Below are positions 22,794 to 51,827 of a stretch of 64,000 bases of DNA, piece after piece. Source of the stretch: an uncultured euryarchaeote (GTDB lineage: Archaea > Thermoplasmatota > Poseidoniia > Poseidoniales > Poseidoniaceae); NCBI GenBank assembly GCA_963981035.1, contig CAXCCF010000001.1, positions 90,572 through 154,571 on the forward strand. The letters run 5' to 3'. Each line of letters starts with the position of its first letter. Within the stretch, counting starts at the first letter, position 1. Under the pieces are notes generated by a model. That model did no database searches. It was not told where the DNA came from and saw only the letters and a program-made list of their open reading frames with translations. The position numbers and the translations under genes were made by a program.

Positions 22794-22866
22794 CTCGGAC
22801 TTTTTAGAGATTTTTTGCATCCATTCTCATGCGAAACCTTGACCCTATGATGCTCGTAGGAGGTAC

Positions 22867-23664: not shown

Positions 23665-23674
23665 GGTGTTAATA

Positions 23675-24709: not shown

Positions 24710-24713
24710 GAAA

Positions 24714-25613: not shown

Positions 25614-25663
25614 GTAACAAACACATTATTCAAACAGTGTTTGCTGGGTTAGGTTGAGTCAGT

Positions 25664-26743
25664 ATGCAGATGAGCATTGGCCAAGCAATTCGTTTGACCC
25701 TATTTGGCACCAGTCATGGACCAGAAGTAGGTGCAATCGTTGAAGGATTGCCTTCTGGTATCGTCATTGATGCAGATGCTATCCAACGTGCAATGGATAA
25801 ACGAAAGCCTGGTGGAAAGTATTCAAGCAAGAGAAAAGAAAGCGATAATGTTGAAATTTTGAGCGGCGTGGAAAATGGAAAAACAAATGGCAAAGTATGC
25901 AAAATTAGAATTGCAAATAACGATGTAAAATCAAGCGATTATTCATTTCTTCCACACCACCCAAGGCCAGGCCATCAAGACCTATTAATGCACATAAAAA
26001 CTGATGGAGAGGCTGATTTGAGAGGTGGAGGCACCTCAAGCGCTAGATTGACTGCACCAATCGTTGCAGTTGCAGCGATATTAGCGCCACTTATTGACGA
26101 AATTGGGGTGAAAATTGAAGCCCATGTTTCATCTATTGGCAATATCAATGCTCAAGACATCCAATCATGCCCAGATGATTGGAAAGGTGAAGATTGTGTC
26201 AATATGCGATGTAAAGACCCAGTTGCTGCAAAATTAATGGCACAATATCTAGACTCCCTTAGAAATGAACTAGATTCCGTTGGCAGCAAAGTTGAACTTT
26301 GTATTTCGGGATTACCTCTCGGTTTGGGAGAACCTTGGTTTGATGGAGTTGAACCGGCTCTTGCGAGAGCGATGATGGCAATTCCTGCAGCCAGAGGTGT
26401 TGAATTCGGTAGAGGATTCAATGCGGTACAAATGCTCGGCTCACAACATAATGATGCCTGGGGTGGAACTGTTACTGAACCTAAATTGAAGGGTGAGTCT
26501 CCTGATGGGGCAATCGCTGGATTAGCAAGTGGGGCGCCATTGAAAATTAATATTGCATTCAAGCCGCCATCCAGTATTGCAAAGCCACAGTTAACTTTGA
26601 ATTTAGATACTGGAACTGAAGAAGAACTTGTAGTGAAAGGAAGACATGACCCGGTTATTGGTCCACGCGCTGTAGCTGTTGTTGAAGCGATGGCAACGTT
26701 CATTTTAGTCGATTTAGCAATAAGAGGTGGTTATTTTGAGTGA
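25664..26743 (+). CDS. aroC: Chorismate synthase
   Basis: FGTSHG, PRPGHQD, RGGGTSSARLT, FKPPSSI, GRHDP. Confidence 0.95.
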   Translation: MQMSIGQAIRLTLFGTSHGPEVGAIVEGLPSGIVIDADAIQRAMDKRKPGGKYSSKRKESDNVEILSGVENGKTNGKVCKIRIANNDVKSSDYSFLPHHPRPGHQDLLMHIKTDGEADLRGGGTSSARLTAPIVAVAAILAPLIDEIGVKIEAHVSSIGNINAQDIQSCPDDWKGEDCVNMRCKDPVAAKLMAQYLDSLRNELDSVGSKVELCISGLPLGLGEPWFDGVEPALARAMMAIPAARGVEFGRGFNAVQMLGSQHNDAWGGTVTEPKLKGESPDGAIAGLASGAPLKINIAFKPPSSIAKPQLTLNLDTGTEEELVVKGRHDPVIGPRAVAVVEAMATFILVDLAIRGGYFE

Positions 26744-28076: not shown

Positions 28077-29000
28077 TCACTCTGCTTTATTCTCACGGTA
28101 ATTTTGCAGGTGAGTTGGAAGGTTTAATGCAAACAATCCGCCTACTACTAAGAATACGAATAATGTACCAAGTGCAACACCATATACTGAAATCAATTCA
28201 ACTGATTCTTCCATACGCATTGCCACATCTTCAGAAAAGATTCCAACGATGAATGGCAAAATATTGTTTGCATTCAAAACGATCATCGCCATAATAGTAG
28301 CAAGAATAGGATTCAAAATAAGTGAGCGATGGTACTTTCCAACAATCTTCTTAGGATTCATCACATATACCTCATTGGTTCTAATACTCGTATCTAGCAT
28401 AGAGTAGCGAATAACTCCATTTGATAATTCGAAATACATTATCAACAGTACAGCATAGACTACAACCAAAATTGACAACATAGTTGGACTATCTGAAAAT
28501 CCAAAGACATCATTAGATAAAGTCACCTTTGATGATGCGAACCTCAAGATTGCTAATATGAATAATAAATTGCTTGCAATTGAGAAACGTGCATCCCTTT
28601 GGAAAGTTCCCCAGAAACCAGCAACTGTTGCTGCTATTATTACTATCATCTGCATAATGAATGCAAATCCAAGGCTTCCAGTCATCATATACCATATTGA
28701 TCCTTCCTCTGGCGAGACAATGAATGTTAGAAGAGCGAGAGCAATTAGAACTCCATAGACACCAATCTGAAGGTTTTGGACCATCTTATCTGGAGGTAGG
28801 AATTTCATCTTTGGCACAAGAGGACCGCCTAATAGGCTTTCAATGAAGGTTGGAATTTCAACTTCAGGAATCGCGTCCTTTGGTATTTCTGAACCAAGGC
28901 CCATTTGTCCTGCTGCTTTCTTTCTTGATGGGGCGGCTGAACGAACAGTCTTTCCATCATACAAGTGTGAAGTATCTCCGGATGGCTTCTTAATTGTCAT
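28077..29000 (-). CDS. Hypothetical polytopic membrane protein (last gene of the MoxR operon)
   Basis: About 6 hydrophobic segments; GAGGTGA RBS; 9 bp after the DUF58 gene. Confidence 0.65.
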   Translation of the reverse strand: MTIKKPSGDTSHLYDGKTVRSAAPSRKKAAGQMGLGSEIPKDAIPEVEIPTFIESLLGGPLVPKMKFLPPDKMVQNLQIGVYGVLIALALLTFIVSPEEGSIWYMMTGSLGFAFIMQMIVIIAATVAGFWGTFQRDARFSIASNLLFILAILRFASSKVTLSNDVFGFSDSPTMLSILVVVYAVLLIMYFELSNGVIRYSMLDTSIRTNEVYVMNPKKIVGKYHRSLILNPILATIMAMIVLNANNILPFIVGIFSEDVAMRMEESVELISVYGVALGTLFVFLVVGGLFALNLPTHLQNYRENKAE

Positions 29001-29009
29001 AATCTCACC

Positions 29010-30323
29010 TCAGAATCCTCTTGCTCCTGCAAGTGCTGTAGATAGTAGCATATCAGGCTCCCAATCCATAATATTGACGCCGAGACCTCTTAATTCACTA
29101 ATTAGTACATCTCTTTCAGTCTTCATTACTTCATATCCAGTTCGGTCAAGACGCTTGGCGTCAAACTCAAATTCAAGAGATGATGGTGAAAGAACTGTAA
29201 CATCGAAGTTCCTTGCTCTAAAGTCACGTAGTGCATTAACAATTGTTGGATCGTCTTCAAGATTCGATAAGAATATGATCGGACTACCCTTGTTGATGTG
29301 CGGCATTATTCTGTTCACTACTACTTGTAGTGGAATATTACCACCAGCAACAGCACCTGATAACTTGGTTAGAATAATGTATAGTTGCTTCTTTCCAGTA
29401 TCCCTATCAACACTGACAACTTCATTTCCGTATGTGATAACACCAACGGAGTCACGACGTCCTAAGAAATACTTAGCCAATGATGCTGCAGCTCTTGTTG
29501 AATAAACCAATGCATTTCTAGAAACTGGACCAGTTTCAGAAACTGCTCTTGAATCAACTATGATAATGATATCAGAAACTGCATCACGTTCACGTTCGTT
29601 AACCATCAATTTACCACTTCTAGCATATGCTGACCAGTTAATTGCTCTAAAGGAATCTCCTTCAAAATATTCACGCAGTGAATAGAATTCTGAACCAGGA
29701 CCTGGTTGTCTGATATTTACCGCACCGGTGAAAATCTTCGGAACACGAGACTTGACGAATGTGTCACTGAGGTCTTCCATCTTAGGGAATACAAGGAAAT
29801 CATTGTAGACATGCAATTCTTTTTCCTTGTGAAATAATCCGAAAGCGTCTTGGATCCTAACAGCCACAGGACCCAGACTATAGAAGCCACGTAGTGGGCA
29901 TTCAACAGTGTATTCAATCAGTGTTTCACGGCGAGGACCTAGTTCCATCAAGATGTAATTAGAACCCTTTTTGATTCTCATTACTTCTGGAACTCTATCT
30001 CTTACCTCCAATATCTTGGCTAATGAAGAGTGATTTTGCATTCGCAACGTTACATCTAACTCCCCGTCTTCGAAAATCCGAGCGCTAGATAATTTACGCA
30101 TTGCAGAGACATTGCCCAGTGCTGCTCCTTCTTCTCCCTTCCATTCATCTGCACGACGCCCAGTACTTGCGACGTCTGCATGGCCACCGAAAAGGGCAGC
30201 CCAGGTAAGGAAAACAAAGATGACTACGGCAATAGTAACAAGTTGGGTATTACGTAGGGTGAGTCCAAGTAAATACATGGACACAGCCAAACTTCCTAAC
30301 ATTGCTGATTTACGACTCCACAT
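29010..30323 (-). CDS. DUF58 (vWA-like) MoxR-associated protein
   Basis: GSEFYSLREYFEGDSFRAINWSAYAR; IIVDSRA; N-terminal TM helices. Confidence 0.9.
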   Translation of the reverse strand: MWSRKSAMLGSLAVSMYLLGLTLRNTQLVTIAVVIFVFLTWAALFGGHADVASTGRRADEWKGEEGAALGNVSAMRKLSSARIFEDGELDVTLRMQNHSSLAKILEVRDRVPEVMRIKKGSNYILMELGPRRETLIEYTVECPLRGFYSLGPVAVRIQDAFGLFHKEKELHVYNDFLVFPKMEDLSDTFVKSRVPKIFTGAVNIRQPGPGSEFYSLREYFEGDSFRAINWSAYARSGKLMVNERERDAVSDIIIIVDSRAVSETGPVSRNALVYSTRAAASLAKYFLGRRDSVGVITYGNEVVSVDRDTGKKQLYIILTKLSGAVAGGNIPLQVVVNRIMPHINKGSPIIFLSNLEDDPTIVNALRDFRARNFDVTVLSPSSLEFEFDAKRLDRTGYEVMKTERDVLISELRGLGVNIMDWEPDMLLSTALAGARGF

Positions 30324-30358
30324 CTAAAACACCTCTTTATCAATTATAGAGTTTAGAT

Positions 30359-31510
30359 TCAAACAGTAGGAACTGGTACTTCGCGTAAAATTGTTTGGAT
30401 TACTTCGCCGGCTTCAAGACCCTTAATTTGATGTTCAGGTTTGAGGATAATACGGTGTGCAATTGCAAGTTCTGCAATTGACTTGATATCATCAGGCGTA
30501 ACGAAATCACGGCCACGTAGAGCAGCAGATGCACGGGAAGTCTTCAGAAGAGCTTGGCTACCACGAGGGGAAGCGCCGACGAGAACACGAGGGTCCTCAC
30601 GGGTTCTTGCTACAACTTCTACCATGTACATACGAAGTGCTGGGTCAACATATACGTCTTCACAAGCTTGTTGCATTGCAATAACTCGTTGTGGGTCAGT
30701 GATTACATCGACATCGACTGCATCCTTTCCACGTGTAATACGACGGGATAGAATTTCGTCTTCATCTGCACGGTCTGGATATCCTACGGACATCTTGAAC
30801 ATGAAACGGTCAAGTTGTGCTTCTGGAAGAGGGTAAGTACCTTCTTGCTCTACAGGGTTCTGAGTTGCCATTACAATAAATGGTGCAGGTAACTTGTGAG
30901 TTACTGTTCCGATTGTAACTTGCTTCTCTTGCATAGCCTCAAGCAAAGCAGCTTGAGTCTTTGGTGGAGCACGGTTAATCTCATCCGCTAGTAGAAGGTT
31001 ACAGAACAAAGGTCCTGGCTTGAAAGTAAATTCTCCCTTCTTAGCATCATAGATGTTAGTACCGGTGATATCAGCTGGTAACAAATCCGGTGTAAATTGT
31101 ACACGCTTAAAGTCACAGCCGAGTGCATCGGCAAAGGTGTTTGTCATCAGAGTCTTAGCCAAACCTGGGTAATCTTCGAAGAGAAGGTTACCGTTGGAGA
31201 GGATATTAATCAACACGTTATCAATAACGTGAGCCTTACCGATAATTACCTTTTGAACTTCCGCAGAAATCGCTGTTGCGATCGCTCCGACTGCTTGTAG
31301 GCGTTCTCGGACCTCAGGTGTGCTCTGATGTCTTGGTTGGGCAGTAGCTGCAGGCATTGGTGCTGGGGCTGGTGCTGCTGGCGCTGGTGCTGCTGGTGCT
31401 ACTGCTGGCATTGGAGCCGCAGGGGCAGGGGCAGGCATAGGCGCTGCAGGGGCCACAGGTGCCGCTGGTGCAGGAACTGCTGGGGCTGCTGGTGGTGCTG
31501 GGGGTTGCAT
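30359..31510 (-). CDS. moxR: MoxR-family AAA+ ATPase with Pro/Ala-rich N-terminal extension
   Basis: DYPGLAKT, RVQFTPDLLPADITG, DEINRAPPKTQAALLEAMQE, YPLPEAQLDRF. Confidence 0.95.
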   Translation of the reverse strand: MQPPAPPAAPAVPAPAAPVAPAAPMPAPAPAAPMPAVAPAAPAPAAPAPAPMPAATAQPRHQSTPEVRERLQAVGAIATAISAEVQKVIIGKAHVIDNVLINILSNGNLLFEDYPGLAKTLMTNTFADALGCDFKRVQFTPDLLPADITGTNIYDAKKGEFTFKPGPLFCNLLLADEINRAPPKTQAALLEAMQEKQVTIGTVTHKLPAPFIVMATQNPVEQEGTYPLPEAQLDRFMFKMSVGYPDRADEDEILSRRITRGKDAVDVDVITDPQRVIAMQQACEDVYVDPALRMYMVEVVARTREDPRVLVGASPRGSQALLKTSRASAALRGRDFVTPDDIKSIAELAIAHRIILKPEHQIKGLEAGEVIQTILREVPVPTV

Positions 31511-31526
31511 GTCAATTTCCTCCTAT

Positions 31527-33116
31527 TTATTTACCCCAACGCCGGATTTGGGGAATTACTTCCCTTAGTTCTTCGTTGGAGTAGGCACGATTACTGCTGA
31601 TTAATTCAACCAATCGTGGGTCGCGGACTAATTGCATTATTTCCGCTTGGCTCTTAAGTGCGAATTCATCGCGCGTTAAGTCATTAAATTGACGCACCTT
31701 TGAGAGCATCGCTTCTCTGGTGCGCATATGATATTGTGAAGAGTCAACCTTGTTAGGGCGTTCGCGGAAGCGAGTCAAATCAAAGACATGTCTCCAGTTT
31801 TCTTTCTCTGGTACAACCATTATTGCAATGGATAGAAGAGCGAATAAATTGAGAATAATTAACCACTTCAATACTACATCGCTAGTGAGCAATACGATTG
31901 CACCCATCGCTTCTGTAAATGGCATACTCAATGCGCTTGAAACGTGTCTACTTTCATCAAATACCAAATTGAATTGATCAGGATGACTGGTGATGGTCGT
32001 TGACATATCTTTATTGTCAAATTCCATCATATCAAAAATGAGTGCTGTGAAATATTGAGAGTTACCATTCCATTGTGTTGAACCTTGGGCTGCGGATAAT
32101 CCATCGCTTGCCGTACTCCAGCACTTGTGATTGTTTTCAACATAATATGGGGAAGTGCACTGCAACTTACCAGTTTCTCCAGCCAAGTCAAAATCCCACA
32201 GATGGTTTGCAAACACAGAGTGGTCAGAAACGAAAACGATACTTCCAGTTGCTGAAATACTACCAACCTCGTTGTGAGGTTTCTTGTCGATAATATTTCC
32301 ACTAGTTATTGGATAATCAATACGAACTATTAGTCCAGTTTTTCCTTCACCCAATGTAGGATTGTTGTTGTTGTTGACATCCATGTCGTGACGAGCGATG
32401 AATGCAGGTGTTGATGCGTGAGCTAATACACTGATTTCACGACCGGTGTCTGCCTGCTCATCCAATACTTGGATTGCAGTAGGACGGTGGAATAGCACCG
32501 GCATTCTACAATTGCTAATTTGCTGATTTGTAATCATAGTTTGACTACAAGGGATTCTAGATTCTTCTCCCATTTCTGTAACTTCTCTATCAATGCTTGC
32601 AACTGACCAAAGCCTTCTCTGGTCTGGGTCAATTCGCTCACCAGTTTCATCTGCAACTTCATAATATTGGTAAGGGTCAACTACTGGTGCATCGAAATAT
32701 TTGACGCCGAATTCTTCAGCGACCAATTGAGCATTCGTACTATTTGCTGCAAGTATTACTTTACCACCTTTATTGGCAACGAAGTCATACAATGCTGCTG
32801 CTTCAGCGGAATCGAATGGTTTCTCTGGTGCAGCAATTACCAAAAGGGTGCGATGTGGTTCTTTCCAATCATTTACCAGCATTGGAGTTGACATGGTGTT
32901 TGCAACATTGTAACCTACTCCACCATCTCCCAAATCTGTACGCATTACCGTCAATTGTTGATCGGAATAATCAGGACTGTTATCATAAGGAGAAAATACA
33001 GTTTCTTTGTTTGAAGAAACTAAAGCAATCACTACGGTTGATAGTAACAATGACGAAATCAAGCCAACCATTAACCACGTTTCAAGACTGAAACGGGAAC
33101 CATTGCTCTCTGCCAT
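31527..33116 (-). CDS. DUF4350-like membrane-anchored extracytoplasmic protein
   Basis: N- and C-terminal TM helices; LYDFVANKGGKVILAAN, GSIVFVSDHSVFAN, VFDESRH; sits upstream of moxR as is typical. Confidence 0.65.
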   Translation of the reverse strand: MAESNGSRFSLETWLMVGLISSLLLSTVVIALVSSNKETVFSPYDNSPDYSDQQLTVMRTDLGDGGVGYNVANTMSTPMLVNDWKEPHRTLLVIAAPEKPFDSAEAAALYDFVANKGGKVILAANSTNAQLVAEEFGVKYFDAPVVDPYQYYEVADETGERIDPDQRRLWSVASIDREVTEMGEESRIPCSQTMITNQQISNCRMPVLFHRPTAIQVLDEQADTGREISVLAHASTPAFIARHDMDVNNNNNPTLGEGKTGLIVRIDYPITSGNIIDKKPHNEVGSISATGSIVFVSDHSVFANHLWDFDLAGETGKLQCTSPYYVENNHKCWSTASDGLSAAQGSTQWNGNSQYFTALIFDMMEFDNKDMSTTITSHPDQFNLVFDESRHVSSALSMPFTEAMGAIVLLTSDVVLKWLIILNLFALLSIAIMVVPEKENWRHVFDLTRFRERPNKVDSSQYHMRTREAMLSKVRQFNDLTRDEFALKSQAEIMQLVRDPRLVELISSNRAYSNEELREVIPQIRRWGK

Positions 33117-33351
33117 TTTTTATCTCTCCTGCGGCGTTTGCATAAGCATAACTCAATACAAGCATTCGTCGGAACTTCACTCCACTCATAATAGTTATCC
33201 ATCACTGCGCATAAACATTTGTTTATTACACACCCTTTTCCTATTCAAATACAGCGAATAATGCCGAAATGCGGAAGGTTTGCGCCGAATATTTACATTG
33301 GCAATTATTATGCAAATTTTCTAATATCTGCGAGAGATAATCAAAAACAGG

Positions 33352-34305
33352 TTATTCACCTCTCTTAGGGTAATAAAATGCTAAAATCAGAATGAAAAAT
33401 AACTCATAAAAGCCAATCCATGACAAATCGCTCGAATTTTCACTCAAACCATCACTACTTGATGAGCCGCCATCAGAGGATTGGTCATTGTCAACAATCT
33501 CTGCAGCTGTGACTTTAACATCAAAAGTGGTTGAACGAACCCTTGTATCTCCTTCTGAAGTAACTGAGAAAGTCACTTCACATGTTCTTCCAGGGTGGCT
33601 AGCAGAAGCAATAAATTTCACGTCAAAACCTTTTGCAGTATTATTGTCCAAGTCTGTTGGTTCAACGATTAAATTGTCAAACTGTTCTAAACCTTCCACA
33701 TTTAGATTTGGACAACTCCTAATGTTGATATCTGCACTTGTTACCGCATCCTTATGATTACCCCAATTGGAAATTAGAACTTCAACTTCAATCCAGGTGT
33801 CAGAGTACATTGTTTGGCCTTCAACATCATCAGGCTGTAAATTGAATATTTTTGGCAGCATTATTTCTGCATCAATCTCTTGGCTGGAAACAGTTTGATC
33901 AGATATTACTTCTTCCGCAGTCAATATCAGAGAATATGAATCCGAAGGGCTGAAACTACGAATATCAAGAGCGCTATTTTCTGTTAAAGTAAATGTGAAA
34001 GAAGTATTCTCTCCTCCTGCAATAGTTCCAGATTCAGGACCCTCAACCTCAAAGGGATTTTCCGAATCCCAATCTAATACTAAATTTACATTTAATTCAC
34101 TTTGGCGAGAATTTTCAATAAATATTACTAACGTTCCGCTAATATCCCAATCATCTTCCATCTCGACCTCATAAGACCCATCAACATCGGTAACCCAGCC
34201 CAATTCCCAACTTTGAGTTTCGAACTGGGCTGATGTGTTTAATGAAATCGGCAATAACAACAGGATGATTAGTGCTACAACAATTCTTGTTTTTATACGA
34301 ATCAT
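33352..34305 (-). CDS. Secreted beta-rich protein with C-terminal sorting-signal-like anchor
   Basis: Signal peptide; V.V.ISNWGN..D motif; Ser/Gly linker then WIGF, hydrophobic helix and KR; GAGGTGA RBS. Confidence 0.6.
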   Translation of the reverse strand: MIRIKTRIVVALIILLLLPISLNTSAQFETQSWELGWVTDVDGSYEVEMEDDWDISGTLVIFIENSRQSELNVNLVLDWDSENPFEVEGPESGTIAGGENTSFTFTLTENSALDIRSFSPSDSYSLILTAEEVISDQTVSSQEIDAEIMLPKIFNLQPDDVEGQTMYSDTWIEVEVLISNWGNHKDAVTSADINIRSCPNLNVEGLEQFDNLIVEPTDLDNNTAKGFDVKFIASASHPGRTCEVTFSVTSEGDTRVRSTTFDVKVTAAEIVDNDQSSDGGSSSSDGLSENSSDLSWIGFYELFFILILAFYYPKRGE

Positions 34306-34314
34306 TATTTCACC

Positions 34315-35289
34315 TCAGCGCAAAAAACCATCAATTGCTCGCTTGGTCAATACTCTAACCATCTTCTTACGATATCTTGGAGTTAGAGTTGTATTATTTA
34401 CTGGCTTTATTGATTTTTGAATGGCTACTGAAAGAGATTTAACACTATCAATGCCGTTCCAACCTTCTTCCAGCACTGCGGATACTTGTTCATCGTGCAT
34501 CTTTGGTATTGATTCTAAAGCAGTAGATGCGATAAGAATAGAATTTTCATCTCCTGCTATCCATGATGCAGCAACACCTGCCTCTGGGAAATCCCAAGAA
34601 TCACGAACACGCAATTTTTGATAACAACCAATTCTTTGTTGTGATTCTGCTGGAAGGGTTACTTTGAGCAAAAACTCACCCTCCTCAAGAACATTCTTCT
34701 TCTTTCCATCCAACTGATAAAAATCACAAATTGGTACTTGTCTTTGCCCCGAAGGACCAACGATGTGAATCATCCCTTCAAGTACCATCAAGTTAGGAGC
34801 AATGTCTCCTTGATATGTAGCAACACATAGTGTATTTTGGTTAGGAATAACCCTACAATCAGCTCCAGTCCCACAGTCTGCTTTGTGGCACCAATCAATA
34901 CTACGCCTCCAATCTTCTCCTTGATTATACCAGAAACAACGAGTATCAAGACAAAGGTTTCCTCCAAGTGTTGCGTTGTTTCTAATCAAAGAAGAGGCTA
35001 CTTTAGAAGCGGCTTCAGCAATCAGTGGATGGACTCCATTCTCTTCGGTTAATTCGGATAATCGTGCCATACAACCAATTTCAGTAGCAGAGATCACATT
35101 AGACCCTTGTATTTTAGCAAGAGAAATTACATGTGGTTTTGTATTGATGTGCCATTTGTAATTCGGAATCAAATCTGTTCCGCCCGCAACCCAATCAAAT
35201 TTCTGACCTTCTTCCATCAAGTTCTGTGCAATTTCACATGCCTGCTCTACAGAAGTAGGGTGGTGTAGTGTAAAAGGTGGCATTAGCAT
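34315..35289 (-). CDS. Molybdenum hydroxylase FAD subunit with [4Fe-4S] insert (HcrB-like)
   Basis: AGGTDLIPN, NATLGGNLCLDTRCFWYNQ...WC...C...C.ATYQGDIAP, KLRVRDSWDFP. TGATG coupling to the large subunit. Confidence 0.85.
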   Translation of the reverse strand: MLMPPFTLHHPTSVEQACEIAQNLMEEGQKFDWVAGGTDLIPNYKWHINTKPHVISLAKIQGSNVISATEIGCMARLSELTEENGVHPLIAEAASKVASSLIRNNATLGGNLCLDTRCFWYNQGEDWRRSIDWCHKADCGTGADCRVIPNQNTLCVATYQGDIAPNLMVLEGMIHIVGPSGQRQVPICDFYQLDGKKKNVLEEGEFLLKVTLPAESQQRIGCYQKLRVRDSWDFPEAGVAASWIAGDENSILIASTALESIPKMHDEQVSAVLEEGWNGIDSVKSLSVAIQKSIKPVNNTTLTPRYRKKMVRVLTKRAIDGFLR

Positions 35290-38093
35290 CAATTCTCACC
35301 TCCCATGTTTCGTTGTTCTTTTTTGAGCCAGGCTTTACCTGCAAAACCAAGTTCTGCTAATTGCTCAGGGAGTGGTTCTGTTGCGGCTCTCCATCCTTCC
35401 ACTTGATCTTCGAGAGGGATATTTGGGTCAAATCCGAATAGCACTCCATTGACATATGCAGAGGTATCTTCGCTTCGTTGGCGTGCGACATCTCTGATTT
35501 TATGCTGTGCAGCCCTCTCAACAACAACTTGTTGCATAGCCGAATGAGTTAACCTAGGGCTTTCTAAGTCAAGTGCATCGTCAACAGATAGAGCCTTCAT
35601 TTTCTTTTCAATAGCGAAAAATACAGTATCAGGAGTCAATGGTAAATCATTGATTCTAATTCCAATAGCATCGTAGACTGAATTGACTACTGCTGGTAAT
35701 ATCGGCAATAATGGCCCTTCTCCTGCTTCTTTTGCACCGAATGGCCCTTCCGGGTCACAAGACTCTACGATAATTGGCTCAACATGAGGCATTTCATGGA
35801 CTGATGGAATCTTGTATTCTAACAGATTAGCATTTTGTAAATGCCCAGTTCTTCCATAGACCATTTCTTCTGAAATTACTTGCCCAAGTCCCATGTGGCA
35901 AGAGCCAATAATCTGCCCTTTTACAGCCAAAGGATTCAATGCTTTACCGCAATCGTGAGCGGCCCAAACATTTGTACATTTTATTTGGCCGGTTTCAACA
36001 TCCACATCAGTTTCTGCAACATATGCAGAAAACGAATAAGCAGGTGCTAATCCAGCTGCTGCACCCTTGTGTACACCGCCCATTGGAGGTGAACGATATG
36101 CTCCGCTGGAAATTAGTGCACCTTTATCCTCTTGTGCCTTATGCAGTGCTTTAAGGTATGAAACACCGATGGAAGGGTCGTGTTTGTAGTAAATTCTCCT
36201 GTCGTTTAGTACCAAAAGGTCTGGGTGATATCCAAGCATTTCCCAAGCAGCGTTTAGCAACTTATCTCGAATCTCAATCGCTGCGCGAATTGCAGCATTT
36301 GCATTCATGAAAGTAACACGACTGGAATATGAACCAAGATCAACAGGGCTAGTATCACTTTCATGTGAACGAACGTGAATCATTTCAATTGGCAGTGCCA
36401 ATACTTCAGCAACTACTTGCGCTACTGCCGTGGTAGAACCTTGACCGATATCTGCGGCACCTGAATGGACTGTTACGCCTCCATCCATGTCAACTTGGAT
36501 ATGTACGGTTGCGTGAGGGAACTTGTTTGGATCCCAATGAATCGGTAGACCAGAACCACTAATGAAAAATCCACAACCGATTCCAATTCCTTTGCCGAGT
36601 GGTAGTTGCCTGAACTTATTATCCCAATCTGATTGCTCTCTCACCTTTTCAAGTGCTTCACGCATACCATTGCTGGTAATTCTAAACCCACTGATTGTCC
36701 TACTATGTGGCGGTAGTAAATTTGCCAACCTCAAATCTATTGGATCGACTGATAAATCCTCGGCCATTTGGTCAAGACCAACTTCAACAGCACATCTTGT
36801 ATTGACTGCTCCATGGCCTCTCATCGCACCACTTGCAGGTTTATTTGTCCAAACTCTTGCACCTGTATAATGGAATGAACCCAATTCATATGGGGCGGTT
36901 GCAAGGACTCCATTGTAATATGATGTGACATGGCCGAAACTTGCGAATCCACCGCCATCGATTAATGCATCAATATCAAATCCTGTGATTCTTGCATCAT
37001 CATCAGCACTCATTTTCACTTCAATGTGGCTTGGATGGCGCCCTCTATTGATCATGTAGACTTCTTCTCTGTCAAATGTAATCCTCACTGGTCGTCCACA
37101 TTTGCGCGATAATAACGCCGCACACATTTCGTGCGGGAATGGGTCTGATTTTCCACCGAATCCTCCACCAACAAAGGTTCTAATGACATTGATTTGGTGC
37201 ATTGGAACTGCTAATACCGTTGATAGAGCGCGATGTGTATAGTGTGGAACTTGACTTGGCGTGTATAATTGTAAACGACCATTTGGGTCCCAATGAGCAA
37301 CTACGGCATGGGGTTCAGTAAACCCATGGTGAACCCCTTTCATGGTCCACTTGTTGTGGTTGCTTGCCGAAGGTTTGTCAATCAGGCTACGGTCTCCAAA
37401 TTCTTGGAACACTCGCTTTTGTACATTGGTCTTAGCAAGATGGTACTTTCCTCTCCAATGAATTGGTTCATCAGCATCTTCCAAACCTTTCTTCGGGTCA
37501 AAGACCGGTTCAAGTTCTTCATATTCAACTTCAAACAATGAAAGTGCGTGTAACGCTGTTGCCTCATCAACTGCTGCCACACATGCAACTAAATCTCCCA
37601 CGTGTCGGACTTTTTCCACCGCCATTGCATGTTCGTCTTTGGTTACTGGTAATACGCCAAAACTGTTAGGAGAATCCTCTCCAGTCGCTACGGCTAATAC
37701 GCCCGGTAATGCCTCAACTTTACTGGTATCAATGGAAATTACCTTGGCGTAGTGGTGTGGTGAGCGCAATATTTTTGCAATACATTCGTTTGGTAATCTT
37801 ACATCATCACCATACCATGCTTGTCCTGTAACTTTTGCATTGGAATCAACCAATTTTGTAGATTTACCAACCGTTGTACCGGTTCTTGCTCTATCGTGGA
37901 CATGCGAACCGGCTGGTTGTTTTTCACGACCTCCAACCATTTCAGGAATATATTGAAGGTCACGTTCTGCCATTTTTGGCCTAGAACCACCGGAACCTGG
38001 TGGTGGGAAGGATTGCTTTCCTGCAACTCGCTTTCCATCTTTGCGAGTATTATTTCCACCACTACCTGGCTGCTGCTTGTATCCTCCAGACAT
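35289..38093 (-). CDS. Xanthine-oxidase-family molybdopterin-binding large subunit (HcrA-like)
   Basis: VGGGFGGK, GAMRGHG, DIGQGS, GSYSSR, GPFGAKEAGEG. Start moved to ATG 38093 after GAGGTGA. Confidence 0.88.
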   Translation of the reverse strand: MSGGYKQQPGSGGNNTRKDGKRVAGKQSFPPPGSGGSRPKMAERDLQYIPEMVGGREKQPAGSHVHDRARTGTTVGKSTKLVDSNAKVTGQAWYGDDVRLPNECIAKILRSPHHYAKVISIDTSKVEALPGVLAVATGEDSPNSFGVLPVTKDEHAMAVEKVRHVGDLVACVAAVDEATALHALSLFEVEYEELEPVFDPKKGLEDADEPIHWRGKYHLAKTNVQKRVFQEFGDRSLIDKPSASNHNKWTMKGVHHGFTEPHAVVAHWDPNGRLQLYTPSQVPHYTHRALSTVLAVPMHQINVIRTFVGGGFGGKSDPFPHEMCAALLSRKCGRPVRITFDREEVYMINRGRHPSHIEVKMSADDDARITGFDIDALIDGGGFASFGHVTSYYNGVLATAPYELGSFHYTGARVWTNKPASGAMRGHGAVNTRCAVEVGLDQMAEDLSVDPIDLRLANLLPPHSRTISGFRITSNGMREALEKVREQSDWDNKFRQLPLGKGIGIGCGFFISGSGLPIHWDPNKFPHATVHIQVDMDGGVTVHSGAADIGQGSTTAVAQVVAEVLALPIEMIHVRSHESDTSPVDLGSYSSRVTFMNANAAIRAAIEIRDKLLNAAWEMLGYHPDLLVLNDRRIYYKHDPSIGVSYLKALHKAQEDKGALISSGAYRSPPMGGVHKGAAAGLAPAYSFSAYVAETDVDVETGQIKCTNVWAAHDCGKALNPLAVKGQIIGSCHMGLGQVISEEMVYGRTGHLQNANLLEYKIPSVHEMPHVEPIIVESCDPEGPFGAKEAGEGPLLPILPAVVNSVYDAIGIRINDLPLTPDTVFFAIEKKMKALSVDDALDLESPRLTHSAMQQVVVERAAQHKIRDVARQRSEDTSAYVNGVLFGFDPNIPLEDQVEGWRAATEPLPEQLAELGFAGKAWLKKEQRNMGGEN

Positions 38094-38097
38094 GATT

Positions 38098-38676
38098 TCA
38101 CCTCGCGTGTCCTGGTGGCATATTCGGTTGTTCTGGACCGGTTGGATGCGGGTCTGGATGAGGCGAACTTGCCGGTTGTTCTGGCTCAACTTCACCTCTA
38201 TGAATGGCGGCTGCTTCCTGAATAGATTCAACAATTTGTTGGTAACCAGTACATCTGCAAAGATTTCCTTCTATTGCAGTCTTCACTTCTTCATCTGTTG
38301 GGGAAGTATTTGTATTGAGTAATGATTGAGCTGCAATTAGGAATCCAGGGGTACAAAATCCACACTGTGAACCACCATACTTTGCAAAACAATTCTGAAT
38401 TGGAGCAAGATGTGCCCCGTCTGCAAGCCCTTCTACAGTAAGGATCTCACTATCAGATACTTGTCCGGCAAGAGTGAGACAAGATAACTGTGGTTGGCCA
38501 TCGACCATTACCGTACAACAGCCACAAGTTCCCAAATCACAACCTCTCTTTACACCTAGAGTTCCAACTTTATCTCGTAGAACATCCAGTAATGTTGCAT
38601 TTGATGTTGTAAGGACTTCAATTGCCTCTCCGTTGACCTTTGCTGACCAGATTTCCTTGTCTCCACAAGGAAGCAT
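38098..38676 (-). CDS. 2x[2Fe-2S] small subunit (HcrC/CoxS-like)
   Basis: GCDLGTCGCCTV, QCGFCTPG, GNLCRCTGY. ATG 38676 preferred as start. Confidence 0.92.
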   Translation of the reverse strand: MLPCGDKEIWSAKVNGEAIEVLTTSNATLLDVLRDKVGTLGVKRGCDLGTCGCCTVMVDGQPQLSCLTLAGQVSDSEILTVEGLADGAHLAPIQNCFAKYGGSQCGFCTPGFLIAAQSLLNTNTSPTDEEVKTAIEGNLCRCTGYQQIVESIQEAAAIHRGEVEPEQPASSPHPDPHPTGPEQPNMPPGHAR

Positions 38677-38758
38677 ATCTACATGTTCTGTCCCTACCAC
38701 AATAGTCGCCTACGGCGACGTATGGGCGGACACTAATGATGCTATTGGAATAATAATC

Positions 38759-40439: not shown

Positions 40440-42425
40440 TCAATCATCAAGTTCTGCATCTACAATTGATTCAATGTCTGAATCGATAGATTCCACGTAG
40501 TCTTTTGCTGAATAATCTGATGAGGCAAAACTTCCTTCTTCTTTGTCAGTTACTAATCCTGCCAACAAAAGAACGACTAGGAATACTATTGCGAAGCCCC
40601 CTATTGCTAGGGCAATATTAGAAATGCCATCTGACGAGCCCTCTGCGGAAGAAATATCTTTACTAGGATTCATCAACATAATATCTGCTGTAATGATTGC
40701 AGTTGAATAAGAATCTGTACCTTCATTACCAATTCCACGAATGGAAATTGTGTGATTCCCTTCTAAAGTAATTCCAGGCAGGTGTTCTAAATTATGAATC
40801 ATGTCAATGGCTGAAATTGTGAATTCATCATCCCCATGGTCAAATGAATGAAGGTTACTCCAATCATCCCTCAAATGATTACTTCTCCATTGGATTGTGT
40901 CTACTGGTTGTGAAATATTGAATTGCAACTTGTCAGAACTCTCTAAATGAATACGATTATCCATGCCAATTTCAGTAATGAGATTAATTGTGATATTATT
41001 GTTGAATGTATAATCCCGTTCCGCAGCCTCCATTACCGAATCAAGTGCTCTTACCTCGCCATGACCGTAAACATTGTTTTGACGATTTTTTGGAGCCAAA
41101 TCCTCAATACAAGGCTGATTCTTCAACATATATTCACAGCGACGGTATGTGGCTGTTTCTTGCATAATATTTCTAATGTCAAATGGAGATAAATCTGGAT
41201 TTGCTTGATACATTAATGCTGCAACCCCTGCAGCCCCAGGTGTTGCCATTGAAGTGCCGGACATGTCGGTATATTGGTCACCACTATTTGCTTCAACAGA
41301 CATTACATTAGAGCCAACATATGCAATGTTTGGCTTTATTCTTCCTTCCTCTGTAGGACCTTCACTGGAATATGGTGCTATTCCAGAATCCTTGTCCAAT
41401 GCTCCAACTGTAATTACATCCTCAGCAGAACCTGGGGTTCCGATTTGCCCTGGTCCAGCAGTATTTCCTGCTGCAATGAATAATGCGATTCCAGAACGGA
41501 CCATTTCATTTGCATAACGATTGACACTATCTTCTTCAGAAGAAGTCCATTCGATTATTCCCGGACCTCCAAGGCTCATTGATGCTGCACGAATATTGTA
41601 TTCAAAACGATGGTCAACAGTCCATTGCATTCCAGCCATTACAGTTGCAAATGAACCTGAACCTCCGCCATCAAGCACCTTGACACCGACTAAAAATGCC
41701 TGTGGAGCCATTCCGATATGGTCGTAATTAGGCGCTCCTGTACCTGCAGTTGTTCCAGCACAATGAGAACCATGACCGTGGTCATCATAAGGGAATATTT
41801 CGGTTCCATTGGTCGCTGCTGGATTATTCACTGGGTCATAAAATCCAATCACTTTCGGATCGTATGTAGAATTGTCATCATCTAAATCATCAATGCTTGA
41901 ATGCGCTCCATCGATTCCTGTGTCGATGATAGCAACAGTAGAACCGGCACCATCATAGCCAGTATTTTGCCAAACTTGGTCAACGCCATGCAAGACTGCA
42001 GCATCTCCGTTCTGGATGGTGAGGATGCTGTCCAGTTCAATCATTACCACTCCTGGTAAAGCGATTGTATCCAATACTAAATCTACTGGAATTCTTCCAG
42101 CTAATGCATCAATATGTGTTAGTGTCCATTGATGTTGATAATTCACTTCGCGCATTAATAGGTCAATTTCTTCTTGGCCAGGGGTGTGGTCAAAGTCGAT
42201 GATTAACGGCAAGGTCTTTTCATCATCTAAGAAAATCGGGTTGTCCTTATGCAACTCAACCATATCTCCAATCTTGTTTTGATTTCTGTCAACGGTAGTT
42301 TCAACCCACCAACCTTCTTCAGAATCATCACTAGATGTTTCAGCATAAACTGGTGTTGCCATTATCAAAGTAGGTAACAAAAAGATGGTAAGACAAAATA
42401 GTGCCATTGCGTTTCGGAGTGCCAT
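40440..42425 (-). CDS. Secreted, membrane-anchored S8 subtilase
   Basis: IIDTG, HGHGSHCAGT, AAGN, SGTSMATP; signal peptide, prodomain and C-terminal TM. Confidence 0.93.
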   Translation of the reverse strand: MALRNAMALFCLTIFLLPTLIMATPVYAETSSDDSEEGWWVETTVDRNQNKIGDMVELHKDNPIFLDDEKTLPLIIDFDHTPGQEEIDLLMREVNYQHQWTLTHIDALAGRIPVDLVLDTIALPGVVMIELDSILTIQNGDAAVLHGVDQVWQNTGYDGAGSTVAIIDTGIDGAHSSIDDLDDDNSTYDPKVIGFYDPVNNPAATNGTEIFPYDDHGHGSHCAGTTAGTGAPNYDHIGMAPQAFLVGVKVLDGGGSGSFATVMAGMQWTVDHRFEYNIRAASMSLGGPGIIEWTSSEEDSVNRYANEMVRSGIALFIAAGNTAGPGQIGTPGSAEDVITVGALDKDSGIAPYSSEGPTEEGRIKPNIAYVGSNVMSVEANSGDQYTDMSGTSMATPGAAGVAALMYQANPDLSPFDIRNIMQETATYRRCEYMLKNQPCIEDLAPKNRQNNVYGHGEVRALDSVMEAAERDYTFNNNITINLITEIGMDNRIHLESSDKLQFNISQPVDTIQWRSNHLRDDWSNLHSFDHGDDEFTISAIDMIHNLEHLPGITLEGNHTISIRGIGNEGTDSYSTAIITADIMLMNPSKDISSAEGSSDGISNIALAIGGFAIVFLVVLLLAGLVTDKEEGSFASSDYSAKDYVESIDSDIESIVDAELDD

Positions 42426-42584
42426 AAAACAATCACCTTCAACACATCCACTAGCGTTTATCCTTTCAATTTAGTGTTTGATAGTTTATTACTCGCAATA
42501 AGATTTCAATCACAAAACTACCTATTTGTTTTCATTGCCGGAATAATGCTTAAACCAATATGCGGTAATCAATAGTTGATTAAT

Positions 42585-45500
42585 ATGGCTGCACCAACAA
42601 GAAAGGCTCCGCAACGAATTTCTAAACAAGGACTATTAGCGCGCACTAATGATTCAAGTACGATTTATTCATCTTCCGAGAATAGCACAATTCAAACGCC
42701 GATGGTAATTAGCCAGCCAGGAAAAATTAGAACCCAAGACGACATTAATCTTGAGAAATTTGCTCAATTGATAATGTATATTGTAGCATTGATAGCCATT
42801 TGGGGCGGTATTTTTAGTATCGCTTTTGACGACAATGCAACTAATTCTAATTTCCTGATGCTATTTATCGGCGGATTGGTATCTGCAGCGATGGCTATCT
42901 CTTGGATTGAATTGCAATCTAAGAAAAATGCACATCAATTGATGGAAGTGCAAAATTACATGCTTGGACTCGGTTTCTTCTTTGCAACAGTTGGCACATT
43001 ATGGGGGGCTCGTTATCTAATGGGTTTCGCTACTGGAGAAGGCCTTGAGATATTCGGAGATCCTAACACATATGAGGGAGGAGCTGATTGGCAGCCAAAT
43101 GCAAATGGAATTTATGTTCAGGTAATTGCCGTAATCGCCCTACTACTGACAGAAATGAAACTGCTAAAGAGATACAAAGGTGCTACAACATTTGGATGGG
43201 GCGTTGCTATTTATGGCCCGTTAGCATTGATGATTACGGGAGTAGGACCTTGGATAGATTGGTCCAATAATGAAGTATCTTACGAGTTAGGAATTGCAAT
43301 AATATTGCTCTCTTTTGTCAGCATGGAAGCTGCATTACGTTCAAATAAATCGATGCACTTCTTTGTCGTAGCAATCGTTTCAGGCCTAGTTCCAATTCTT
43401 TACGAATTATTCAATTCAAATGCACCTCCGGGTGGCGAAGGCGGGGCATTATCTCTATTGATATTCATCATTGCGATTCAGGGATACTATGCTTCAAAGG
43501 AAGAATTGCGCTCTGAATTGATGCAGAAAGCAAGTGTCCTATTGGTGGGCGAAGTATTAGTTGCAATGTTTATTGCTAGAATTGCTGATCTAAACTTAAT
43601 CCTTGGACCACTTAGAGCTGAAAACATAGGAATGTTAGCAGAACATCTAACTTTACCTGTGATGTTGTGGGTTACTGTACTGATTGCATATTTCCCTGCA
43701 GTTATGCAACGAAGAGTTCCTTGGATGCCTATTGGTTTGGCTTTTTCTCTATTCTTTTTACCTACGGGTTCCAATATGATTCCTTGGATTATTACATTGG
43801 CTATGATTCCTTACATGCTATTTATCAATACCAATACAAGAAAATGGGTTGCTGATTTTACTGTAGCGATGATTGCAGTCTCGTTTTTCATGACCGATTT
43901 ATTGGCCCGGGTTGGAGGCATCAGTTATGCTGAAATATTCTCCATAGATTATGCAGAATATTTTGTCCCAATCGCATTGGTTGTCATTGCTGAATACGGT
44001 TTCAAAAAGGAAAAAATATCATCCTGGGCACACTTGTCCATCGTTTGTGGAGTTGTATTGTCGCGAGCAATATTAGGTGCTGAAGAATGGTTCTTACCTT
44101 GGGTTTTCGTGGCATACATCTTGTACATTGCAAATTATAGCCTCAAGTCTGCTAGTGAATCAAACATATTTAACGACAGAAAAGAAGCGTCCCTAACAAT
44201 TGTAATCGCACTAGGTTCAACTCTGTTATTGGCTATATTTGGAAAATTAAACTTACCTGAAACAGCGCTTGATGACATGTTATCTGGGTTTAATCTCTCA
44301 TTAATGATACTTGGAATTGGTTCATATTACCTATTACGTAATGGCAGAAATGTTGAATTCGACATAGGGATGTTGCTGAATTGGCAAACACAAAAAAAGA
44401 ATGCGACTACATATAATTCTGAACTAAATGCATGGGTTGAAGTTGATACAAAAAGTGAAGATTATATCAAACAATTTGAACAAAATTGGTTGTCAAAATC
44501 GTGGGGTTCTCTTGCGAGAATGGGACTAATTGTTCCTCTTGTTTTTATGACAATTGCAATCGCTTCAGTAGAGATTAAACCTTTTGCTCAAAACCCTATT
44601 TGGGTAATGTTACTATCAATTCCAGTCGCAATATTAGTTTACGAAATTCTCGCACTTGACAAGATTAGTTCCGTCACAAGAGCAACAGGGGTATGGATGT
44701 TGGTGCTGATGGCCATTCCAATGATACTTCGGATGCAAATAGCAAGAATTGGAGCAACTGAAAAACAACTGGAGGTTTTTAGTGGATTGATACCTGCTGC
44801 GATTGTATTAGATTTGATTTTGATCGCAGCACCATTCATTGTAAACTCTCAAATAAATAAGCGTGGAATAGATGATGAAGTATTGTCAAAGAATGCTGAT
44901 GCTTCTGCATTGGCTGGACTTCTATTACTCGCAATGATGGACTCTTCTGGTGGATTACTTCTGATTAGTATGTTTGTATTAGTGACAAGTAGAGCGATAA
45001 AACATAGACACAATACGGTGCTGTTAGCATCCCCACTAATCTTCGCATTCGTTGGAATCTCTTGGCTGGAAGAATTTGGATTGGCCAATACGATTCTAGA
45101 TGCTTTGGCAATTGATGTCGAATTTGGTTTCCTTACGATTGCAAATATTAGTGGATGGATAATTGCAATCCAAATGAGTATCGTATGGATAATGGCAACA
45201 AAAGAGGTTGATGATGAGACGAAAATTGAATTGCCATGGTGGGGCTCAATGGCTTGGGTTGCTGTAGGATTAATCGCCGCTATTTCTGAAGCCTCTTGGC
45301 TTCCAACTATTTTCACAATTATGTTGACTGGTAGTGCTATCTACAGGGGCAAGGTTTCGTTCATACCTGCTATGCCTATTGCCTTCTTCTTCTCATTGAT
45401 AATTGGAATGGGCGGTGATGCAAACTTTACTGATTGGGATGATGGAGAAATATTTGGATGGAGTGCCATTGCTACTGCATTCTTCACACTGTCACTTTCA

Positions 45501-51186: not shown

Positions 51187-51233
51187 ATCCACGCCTTGCA
51201 GGATTAACACATACACTTTGCGACTGAACCAGT

Positions 51234-51827
51234 TCAATCGTTTTGCAGTAGTGTTTGCTCATTATCCAATAACAACTGCAAATCTTGCTGTGTATCGATG
51301 TTCAAATAAATTAATTGATAATTTACTTGGACTGGATTAAATGATACAAGTTCTCTTAGAGATTCATCTGGTAGGGCGGCTAATACTTCTTCAATATCAT
51401 TTCCAGCAATAATTACTGGATGTCCACTTCGCTTGTTGTTTACCGGCTTACATGAATTATTAGTTTCCATTAACTGTTTAACCATAGCAACATTCCATCC
51501 GGGTCTATCAACTGGGGCAATCAATACTCTTCTCGGAGTTCTTCCATGATCGCCACACAATGACATCAAGCCGCATTGAATACTTCCAGTTCGACCTTCT
51601 TGTGGGTCTTTGTTGATTACTATTGTAGCACCAGGGGCTGATTTCAAACAATCAAATGCTAATTCCGATGAGGTTACTATGACGATTGGAGAGCACCCTG
51701 CATTTTGTAAACGACGAAATGCCAAACCTAGCAAATTAGTATCTCCAATACTGACAAGTGCCTTGGGTTGACCTAGGCGTGAAGAGGCTCCTGCGGCCAA
51801 AATAATTGCTGGTATCCCCTTGGCCAT
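51234..51827 (-). CDS. mocA: MocA-like molybdenum cofactor cytidylyltransferase
   Basis: ILAAGASSRLGQPKAL, PVDRP, GHP, NIDT; next to xdhC. Confidence 0.8.
   Translation of the reverse strand: MAKGIPAIILAAGASSRLGQPKALVSIGDTNLLGLAFRRLQNAGCSPIVIVTSSELAFDCLKSAPGATIVINKDPQEGRTGSIQCGLMSLCGDHGRTPRRVLIAPVDRPGWNVAMVKQLMETNNSCKPVNNKRSGHPVIIAGNDIEEVLAALPDESLRELVSFNPVQVNYQLIYLNIDTQQDLQLLLDNEQTLLQND

Follow-up and report, generated by a model that had tools for sequence, protein, structure and literature searches.

4-Hydroxybenzoyl-coenzyme A (CoA) reductase (4-HBCR), HcrCAB of Thauera aromatica (PDB 1RM6/1SB3; NCBIfam TIGR03193, TIGR03194 and TIGR03195; known as HbaBCD in Rhodopseudomonas palustris), is built from three subunits encoded in the order iron-sulfur (FeS), molybdenum (Mo) and flavin adenine dinucleotide (FAD) and is, judging from sequence, the nearest studied relative of the enzyme that we describe here from an uncultured marine archaeon. 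Passages of PMC12771579 report that 4-HBCR carries the molybdopterin cytosine dinucleotide (MCD) form of the Mo cofactor and that the xanthine-oxidase family has a second reductive member, the urolithin C dehydroxylase Ucdh of the anaerobic gut bacterium Enterocloster bolteae. In those passages, Ucdh is 32.7% identical to 4-HBCR, needs XdhC as well as MCD, and removes a hydroxyl group para to an electron-withdrawing carbonyl from a substrate that is not a CoA ester. A further heterotrimer of the same family, PaoABC of Escherichia coli (PDB 5G5G/5G5H), also has a [4Fe-4S] insert in its FAD subunit; its similarity to our enzyme is much lower. The genes studied here lie on a 64,000-nucleotide stretch of a Poseidoniaceae genome (contig CAXCCF010000001.1, positions 90,572 to 154,571), referred to below as the window.

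Marine Group II archaea, the Poseidoniales, occur in very high abundance and have no cultured representative; ideas about which carbon sources they use are drawn from genomes. Passages of Rinke et al. (PMC6461757) treat synthesis of the Mo cofactor as a core trait of the group and leave the enzyme that uses it unnamed, and the text of Tully (PMC6336850) held no match to the terms that we searched. The literature search, which covered publications but not their supplementary tables (where other names may be in use), returned no paper joining 4-HBCR with Marine Group II or Poseidoniales; the only paper found to mention both Hcr and BoxB, on SAR324 (PMC4782131), lists the two separately in the passages concerned.

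Gene layout and subunit composition

A preliminary description of the window had proposed an Hcr-derived enzyme encoded by three tightly coupled genes in the order small FeS, Mo and FAD subunit, and the layout was borne out: the open reading frames (ORFs) and their translations place the three genes (38700-34315) and that of a downstream secreted protein in a tightly packed series on the minus strand, from 38700 to 33352. The FeS subunit (HcrC-like, small; 38098-38700, minus strand; 200 residues) comprises two [2Fe-2S] domains, Fer2 and Fer2_2 (the latter at 102.3 bits in Pfam), followed by about 35 extra proline-rich residues at the C-terminus; we took the GTG at 38700 as its start, and the end of 38732 given in the preliminary description is 32 nt further out. 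The ATG of the Mo subunit gene (HcrA-like, MCD-type large subunit; 35289-38093, minus strand) comes 4 nt after the FeS stop, and its product matches the hammerhead and the two molybdopterin-binding domains of Pfam, Ald_Xan_dh_C, MoCoBD_1 and MoCoBD_2, and has a length, 934 residues, that fits its close homologues (930-939 residues, 100% coverage). The start of the FAD subunit gene (HcrB-like; 34315-35292, minus strand; 325 residues) overlaps the Mo stop, and the protein matches Pfam FAD_binding_5 and contains a four-Cys [4Fe-4S] loop within the Cys-rich insert CLDTRCFWYNQ...WCHKADCGTGADCRV...CVATYQGD. This insert and the motifs GAMRGHG and GAKEAGEG of the Mo subunit had already been singled out, and all are indeed present, with AMRGHG at residue 423 and GAKEAGEG at residue 786. 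All expected Pfam domains of the three subunits exceed their gathering scores. As read from these domains and motifs, the genes are predicted to encode a three-subunit Mo hydroxylase from the xanthine-oxidase family, with separate [2Fe-2S], Mo-cofactor and FAD subunits, in which the binding elements for the Mo cofactor, two [2Fe-2S] clusters, FAD and the extra [4Fe-4S] cluster are all present.

Comparison with characterised family members

Each of the three subunits has an Hcr family as its best NCBIfam match, at a score under the equivalog cut-off: the FeS subunit reaches 177.6 bits with TIGR03193 (Hcr gamma; cut-off 257.8), the Mo subunit 790.1 bits with TIGR03194 (Hcr alpha; cut-off 994.55; next XdhA, 520.8), and the FAD subunit 229.2 bits with TIGR03195 (Hcr beta; cut-off 404.55; next family 93). 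Among solved structures, the Mo subunit scored 600.5 bits with 1RM6 chain A, followed by a CoxL (267.1), with PaoC at 197.4, and the FAD subunit scored 159.1 bits with 1RM6 chain B, the [4Fe-4S] cysteines being aligned, with 67.9 for the next structure. An AlphaFold2 model of the Mo subunit (59 sequences; mean predicted local distance difference test score, pLDDT, 86.4; predicted TM-score, pTM, 0.89), compared using Foldseek, lay on 1RM6 with a target TM-score of 0.97 and a root-mean-square deviation of 1.5 A, with the best CO dehydrogenase at 0.87 and PaoC at 0.88-0.89. In other words, the enzyme shares with Thauera HcrCAB the three-subunit FeS-Mo-FAD order, the domains, about 40% identity, the four cysteines of the extra [4Fe-4S] loop, the motifs RGHG, GSYSSR and AKE in the Mo subunit and, in the predicted model, a near-identical fold. 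Membership of the aerobic CO dehydrogenases CoxSML is not indicated, as the CoxL models TIGR02416 (287.8 against a cut-off of 991.15) and NF040766 (317.7 against 950) scored far lower.

These scores bear on the possibility that the genes encode a xanthine dehydrogenase (XDH) for purine catabolism. Passages of Damashek et al. (PMC9723583) on metatranscriptomes give MGIIb genes, under the names xdhC and yagS, as putative xanthine dehydrogenase and report a highly transcribed xanthine/uracil permease in Thalassarchaeaceae; the window, too, encodes an XdhC chaperone, but passages of PMC12771579 indicate that XdhC serves the whole family and not XDH alone. All XDH models stayed under their cut-offs (XdhA 520.8 against 780, PRK09970 516.9 against 916, pucD 391.3 against 783.65, xdhB 273 against 849.5), solved XDH chains reached about 145-155 bits against 600 for Hcr, and uricase was not found in the source genome, which is about 90% complete, the basis on which all its genome-wide negatives are read. 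Xanthine dehydrogenases have a substrate-binding Glu right after GGGFGGK, and in our Mo subunit it is Ser that follows this motif. The model scores and the failure to find uricase therefore disfavour the earlier assignment, and we consider it very improbable that this is an XDH.

A PaoABC-like aldehyde oxidoreductase acting in aldehyde detoxification would equally account for a Cys-rich [4Fe-4S] insert, since PaoB and the FAD subunit of 5Y6Q have one, and these are the second-best structural relatives of our FAD subunit. However, PaoC (278.5 against a cut-off of 1180) and PaoA (121.9 against 322) scored well under their models, PaoC and PaoB gave 197 and 67 bits in the Protein Data Bank comparison against 600 and 159 for Hcr, and the PaoC fold matched less closely than that of 1RM6. 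PaoABC is periplasmic and oxidative, and inspection of the translations showed no export signal at the N-termini of any of the three subunits. We therefore hold a Pao-type function to be improbable.

Phylogeny of the Mo subunit

The proteins nearest to the Mo subunit (68-96% identity) come from sources such as Candidatus Poseidoniaceae or Poseidoniales archaeon, and in a search of 1.84 billion representative proteins the best relative outside its own group had 55% identity. HcrA was the best family for 60 of the 62 top representatives scanned, one of which passes the cut-off (P0137, 1301.7 bits) and has relatives in named genomes of Aromatoleum, Thauera, Sulfuritalea and similar genera. Four close bacterial representatives (P0122, P0124, P0127 and P0128) are 934-951 residues long and match the Mo subunit only from about residue 160-175; two of them also match fused FeS-Mo models, and the FeS and Mo subunits seem to be naturally fused in these proteins. 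The HcrA model matched all 41 related genomes analysed (3 families, 11 genera), with a single match in most and none above the equivalog cut-off, an occurrence that marks the enzyme as a single-copy core gene of Poseidoniales. It is not the sole molybdoenzyme of the source genome, as two PF00384 proteins and a MoeA are also encoded there.

Trees of the Mo subunit calculated using FastTree (112 rows) and IQ-TREE (52 rows; LG+C20, quick search) agree in their main picture; one row, L070, comes from an unpublished genome, G044. An Hcr-like superclade (99% support) divides into three clades. Clade B holds the true HcrA of Aromatoleum, Thauera and P0137 (100%) together with three acidobacterial sisters; clade C (98%) holds Gemmatimonadota, Pyrinomonadaceae, Rokubacteria and Myxococcota; and clade A (93%) holds Poseidoniales, other Thermoplasmata, Wallbacteria, Polarisedimenticolia and Planctomycetes. 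Clades A and B are sisters with only 82% support. The Mo subunit of the window falls in clade A and is excluded from the true HcrA clade. Because it belongs to a sister clade and scores below the cut-offs, we conclude that the enzyme is not an orthologue of HcrA; the proposed kinship with Hcr is supported by scores, the 1RM6 comparison and trees. The preliminary description had named as the contrary outcome a grouping with PaoC/YagR or with XDH; the Mo subunit instead groups with HcrA in the trees, while PaoC, CoxL and XdhB, which are not among the rows of the trees, were compared by hidden Markov model, phmmer and Foldseek scores, whose gaps stand in for their placement.

This placement also bears on whether the genes could be a bona fide HcrABC that feeds the classical anaerobic benzoyl-CoA pathway in anoxic microniches. 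Hcr is the closest characterised relative by every measure, but the Mo subunit stands outside the true HcrA clade, and neither an aromatic CoA ligase nor an HGD-D (BcrB/C-type) gene was found in the source genome (the search did not extend to class II reductases of the BamB type). Moreover, as had been pointed out before, the window encodes a heme A synthase (COX15/CtaA; 12783-14012) and an O2-dependent tryptophan 2,3-dioxygenase (15184-16389, minus strand; 184.6 bits; archaeal host), and its 64 kb contain no benzoyl-CoA reductase and no CoA ligase. A classical Hcr in this archaeon is thus hardly credible. Compared with the Thauera enzyme, that of the window differs in its aerobic host, where no benzoyl-CoA reductase or aromatic CoA ligase was found, in scoring under all three cut-offs, and in the residues and extensions described below.

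The extra [4Fe-4S] insert and the gene order had at first been taken as marks of anaerobic aromatic degraders, which proved too narrow. All 20 loci that were checked, drawn from the three clades and including Aromatoleum, had the FeS-Mo-FAD order, and the four cluster-binding cysteines (TRC...CxK...C[RHW]V...CxA) occur in 52 of 52 full-length FAD subunits from clades A, B and C as well as in the window (one further row of the alignment, L071, is truncated). The rows of this FAD/[4Fe-4S] alignment include Gemmatimonadaceae and Pyrinomonadaceae, and 90 of 201 sampled Planctomycetota carry an Hcr-like Mo subunit. As both features are common to a superclade that is frequent in aerobes, we consider them ancestral, and the C-A-B order does not discriminate HcrABC from the rest of the superclade. 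Within the conserved loop, Poseidoniales have a 3-residue insert (CGT) that brings in one or two further cysteines and is missing from Thauera HcrCAB.

For the Mo subunit, 277 alignment columns are conserved in 17 true HcrA sequences; Poseidoniales keep 177 of these and replace 51 with another invariant residue, while the general catalytic motifs are kept. Clade C shares with clade A the residues H284, H353 and K315, as well as superclade, gene order and [4Fe-4S] loop, and has its own putative pocket residues at positions 509, 543 and 733 (S/T509, F543 and Y733, where clade A has F, H and H). The clade C hosts (Planctomycetota, Gemmatimonadota, Pyrinomonadaceae, Rokubacteria) come mostly from taxa known as aerobes. 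Separately, one planctomycete Mo subunit (G312:C116:5374-7596) lies just over the HcrA cut-off (996 bits), in one of nine Hcr-bearing genomes in which no BoxB-like match was found, and could be a genuine Hcr from an anaerobic planctomycete.

The N-terminal and long C-terminal extensions noted earlier on the Mo subunit were confirmed: relative to 1RM6 chain A, whose aligned span covers residues 74-831 as the core, there are about 73 extra residues at the N-terminus and about 100 at the C-terminus. Both are conserved in MGIIa and MGIIb (N-terminal about 60-73 residues, C-terminal about 100 residues) and absent from every other lineage aligned, Thauera included. In the predicted model, residues 1-59 have low confidence, and most of the C-terminal extension, which is helical in part, is modelled with confidence (block means 68-98). 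Taken together, the sequence data describe a complete Hcr-subfamily enzyme that is a lineage-specific variant, in clade A and with Poseidoniales-only extensions.

Linkage and co-occurrence with BoxB

Canonical BoxB genes (above the cut-off even on partial translations) are located 3-4 kb from Hcr genes of the true clade in Hyphomicrobiales, other alphaproteobacterial loci and Emcibacter, and at the same distance from clade C genes in Rokubacteria. In two Planctomycetes, boxC and boxB are divergent from a clade C operon (BoxB 705 and 703 bits against 499.1; BoxC 689 and 696 bits against 712.3), both the tree and the diagnostic residues assigning these operons to clade C and not to clade A. A third planctomycete has genes for a 3-hydroxyacyl-CoA dehydrogenase, a thiolase, an aldehyde dehydrogenase and a BoxB fragment near its Hcr-like genes, and in one of the acidobacterial sisters of clade B, genes for a short BoxB and a CoA-transferase lie 4 kb upstream of the operon. 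Clade C operons are thus found beside canonical boxB/boxC in some genomes, whereas an adjacent box gene was seen in none of the clade A loci examined. As a separate observation, the aspartate decarboxylase gene panD lies between the clade C operon and boxC-boxB in the two planctomycete loci (L172:5925-13790 and L173:5472-13418), and the pantothenate genes panB and panC flank clade C operons in Pyrinomonadaceae loci.

For clade A the association is one of co-occurrence between genomes. Among 201 Planctomycetota, 81 carry both an Hcr-like and a BoxB-like gene, 9 the Hcr-like gene only, 9 the BoxB-like gene only (4 of them with truncated Hcr-like matches) and 102 neither; all 22 genomes of the clade A type (51-58% identity to the window) have a BoxB-like gene, and all 10 full-length short-form BoxB matches in Planctomycetota fall within these 22. 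Among 251 Thermoplasmatota, where clade A was assigned by identity, a BoxB-like gene was found in 65 of 69 clade A genomes and in 15 of the 182 others, or, counted by family, in 6 of 7 against 7 of 39 (Fisher p = 0.001). In other lineages, 5 of 5 clade A genomes have one (including the unpublished G044). Related genomes within these counts are not independent, and the Planctomycetota carry no group codes. A cruder count of Thermoplasmatota (any Hcr-like match of at least 680 bits, strong BoxB only) placed both genes in 4 families, Hcr alone in 5 and BoxB alone in 7, a weak pattern, and was replaced by the count above.

Partners in the source genome and a proposed reaction

The preliminary description had called for a genome search for reductase, box, ligase and ferredoxin-related genes, which gave a mixed result. 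The source genome encodes a short PaaA/BoxB-like protein (contig C31, 13549-14727; 392 residues; 222.1 bits, matching model positions 69-256 only) and one POR_N 2-oxoacid:ferredoxin oxidoreductase, a candidate reducer of ferredoxin. It also has a single AMP-binding gene, which is FadD-like, and one family III CoA-transferase fragment at a contig end; the ADP-forming acyl-CoA synthetase domain CoA_binding_2 was not found in it. Genes for an HTH_10 regulator, an EamA transporter, a 3-hydroxyacyl-CoA dehydrogenase, an enoyl-CoA hydratase and an aldehyde dehydrogenase neighbour the short BoxB-like gene. The same neighbourhood (G000:C31:4000-20168, mainly 8859-14284) also holds MscS and MoaC genes, with the aldehyde dehydrogenase at the contig end, and a 181-residue ORF with a match in no other locus fetched.

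On this basis, we propose, as slightly less than an even bet, that the enzyme is a ferredoxin-driven hydroxyaryl-CoA dehydroxylase that acts upstream of an O2-dependent BoxB-like step. Electrons would pass from reduced ferredoxin, supplied by the 2-oxoacid:ferredoxin oxidoreductase, to the [4Fe-4S] cluster, FAD, the two [2Fe-2S] clusters and finally molybdenum, where 4-hydroxybenzoyl-CoA or a closely similar hydroxyaryl-CoA would lose its para-hydroxyl group. The short BoxB-like diiron oxygenase would act next on the resulting aryl-CoA, and CoA could be attached to the acid by the single FadD-like ligase or the family III CoA-transferase as candidates. The net result would be a hybrid, oxygen-tolerant route for phenolic acids, and the product would not be passed to an anaerobic benzoyl-CoA reductase.

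Several observations weigh against this proposal. With regard to the enzyme itself, all three subunits lie under the Hcr equivalog cut-offs, and the replacements Y284H, P353H, H509F and W733H relative to true HcrA are near the TQ, RGR and pocket-loop motifs; as each of the three clades has its own residue at 509, their pockets are suggested to differ. With regard to the pathway, an aromatic CoA ligase was not found in the source genome, nor was BoxA above its cut-off (best 75.5 against 459.2 bits) or a BoxC homologue (tblastn using planctomycete BoxC), and the BoxB-like protein is itself below the cut-off (222.1 against 499.1). With regard to the association, all physically linked Box cases among the loci examined belong to clades B or C and none to clade A, the Hcr-like and BoxB-like loci are about 900 kb apart in a single-contig Poseidoniales genome, 15 Thermoplasmatota genomes have a short BoxB but no Hcr-like gene, 4 clade A genomes have no BoxB, and the counts come from related genomes. 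Co-regulation through HTH_10 regulators was considered and rejected, as the regulator adjacent to the Hcr-like genes in MGIIb matches the window gene at 22137-22793 and not the one adjacent to the BoxB-like gene.

Instead, an enzyme of the same Hcr subfamily could act on an unrelated substrate or in the usual oxidative direction, with the co-occurrence of BoxB reflecting shared ancestry or lifestyle, which we regard as only a little less probable than the dehydroxylase. In an oxidative version, it would hydroxylate an aromatic, N-heterocyclic or acyl-CoA compound, and electrons would leave through FAD and the [4Fe-4S] cluster to ferredoxin or another acceptor. Such a function fits a sister clade below the cut-offs with differing residues beside the catalytic motifs, the lack of an aromatic-acid CoA ligase in the source genome search, and the fact that a [4Fe-4S] FAD subunit is also present in the oxidative PaoABC and 5Y6Q; a central substrate is also suggested by the enzyme's place among the core genes of a lineage that degrades peptides and lipids. 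The genes around clade A operons are likewise not catabolic but encode XdhC/MocA, belong to housekeeping or are unrelated, and we rejected this gene context as a clue to the substrate; by the same token, it suggests no candidate for a different one. On the other side, boxB/boxC are physically linked to the two neighbouring clades, BoxB-like genes accompany clade A itself in at least three phyla, and the enzyme shares its fold and cofactor wiring with the one member of the family in which electron flow is inverted.

The preliminary description had left the choice between another substrate or direction and a cryptic aromatic-CoA pathway; the link to BoxB-type oxygenases leans towards the latter. 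Many aerobes carry enzymes of this subfamily, which is linked time and again to the O2-dependent Box pathway, so that finding an 'anaerobic' enzyme in an aerobic archaeon is for the most part no longer paradoxical. Extending the dehydroxylase proposal beyond this genome, we would suggest tentatively, and with more doubt than for the source organism, that Poseidoniales and many aerobic Planctomycetota, Acidobacteriota and others use a hybrid route not described before, in which ferredoxin-driven, Hcr-type para-dehydroxylation of 4-hydroxybenzoyl-CoA-like esters is followed by ring opening with O2 by a BoxB-type diiron oxygenase. On that view, the extensions that only Poseidoniales have on the Mo subunit might be an adaptation to the route, for example by shielding or docking.

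Other genes of the window and evidence of transcription

Two genes 12 kb away from the enzyme genes relate to its cofactor. One encodes an XdhC-type chaperone for insertion and sulfuration of the Mo cofactor (50290-51237, minus strand; Pfam XdhC_CoxI and XdhC_C), homologues of which (families f10 and f11) adjoin Hcr-like genes in MGIIb and other loci. The other encodes a MocA/MobA-like nucleotidyl transferase (51234-51827, minus strand; Pfam NTP_transf_3, 92.8 bits), which should convert the cofactor to its cytosine dinucleotide form and whose family comes after the FAD gene in several bacterial loci. Both genes fit the MCD cofactor reported for 4-HBCR in passages of PMC12771579.

The HTH_10 regulator gene at 22137-22793 (plus strand; Pfam HTH_10) is the source genome's best match to the regulator that stands directly upstream of the FeS gene in MGIIb loci (30% identity over 209 residues, E 1e-21, tblastn), and it is possibly the displaced regulator of the Hcr-like genes. 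It adjoins an archaeal-type shikimate cluster (a DeoC-type aldolase, DHQS II, a GHMP kinase and chorismate synthase; regulator and cluster together at 22137-26743), a position that suggests that a rearrangement split the regulator from the Hcr-like genes in MGIIa.

As had been predicted, a secreted, C-terminally anchored protein is encoded 9 bp downstream of the FAD gene (33352-34305, minus strand; 317 residues). Its translation has a hydrophobic N-terminal leader and a hydrophobic C-terminal tail with a basic end; it has no known family, with no match in Pfam or NCBIfam. Members of its own family were found in 33 loci, always directly after the FAD gene, and are syntenic throughout Poseidoniales. 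The protein belongs to a block 3' of the FAD gene (28077-34305, minus strand) that is kept across both Poseidoniales families and consists of the secreted protein, DUF4350, a MoxR AAA ATPase, DUF58 and a 307-residue familyless protein (in 33, 31, 23, 23 and 22 loci, respectively). We rejected a functional tie between the enzyme and this block (secreted protein, DUF4350, MoxR, DUF58), because its conservation is limited to Poseidoniales and amounts to synteny among relatives. Elsewhere, the window encodes a ThiF-rhodanese protein (61152-62429) and two large ORFs without a Pfam match (8603-11572 and 42576-46673, both plus strand; 989 and 1365 residues), near which are two subtilase genes (40440-42425 and 46680-48062).

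Contigs of four metatranscriptomic libraries from three studies cover parts of all three enzyme genes at near identity, and span the FAD/Mo junction (905 nt, 34871-35775) and the FeS/Mo junction (38007-38199); none of those listed runs across from the FAD gene into the gene for the secreted protein. Uncovered stretches and differences in depth between genes are not interpretable in such contigs. As DNA can occur in libraries of this kind, the contigs are consistent with transcription of the three genes but do not prove it, and the Hcr-like enzyme is probably expressed.

Significance

New in this work are a clade-resolved tree with named true HcrA, the clade-specific residues, operons adjacent to boxB and boxC in clades B and C but not in clade A, counts for two phyla of how clade A and BoxB co-occur, and, for the Mo subunit extensions, their conservation and modelled fold. 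An expression system for such enzymes exists in E. coli TP1000 with XdhC, according to passages of PMC12771579. Once shown, the function of this core enzyme would add a substrate class to the ecology of Marine Group II, and would put to the test the idea that reductive dehydroxylation of the Hcr type operates in aerobes and supplies the Box pathway. If the hybrid route holds true, the most abundant archaea of the surface ocean would consume phenolic acids derived from phytoplankton, and an 'anaerobic' Birch-like dehydroxylation would be routine in oxic cells.

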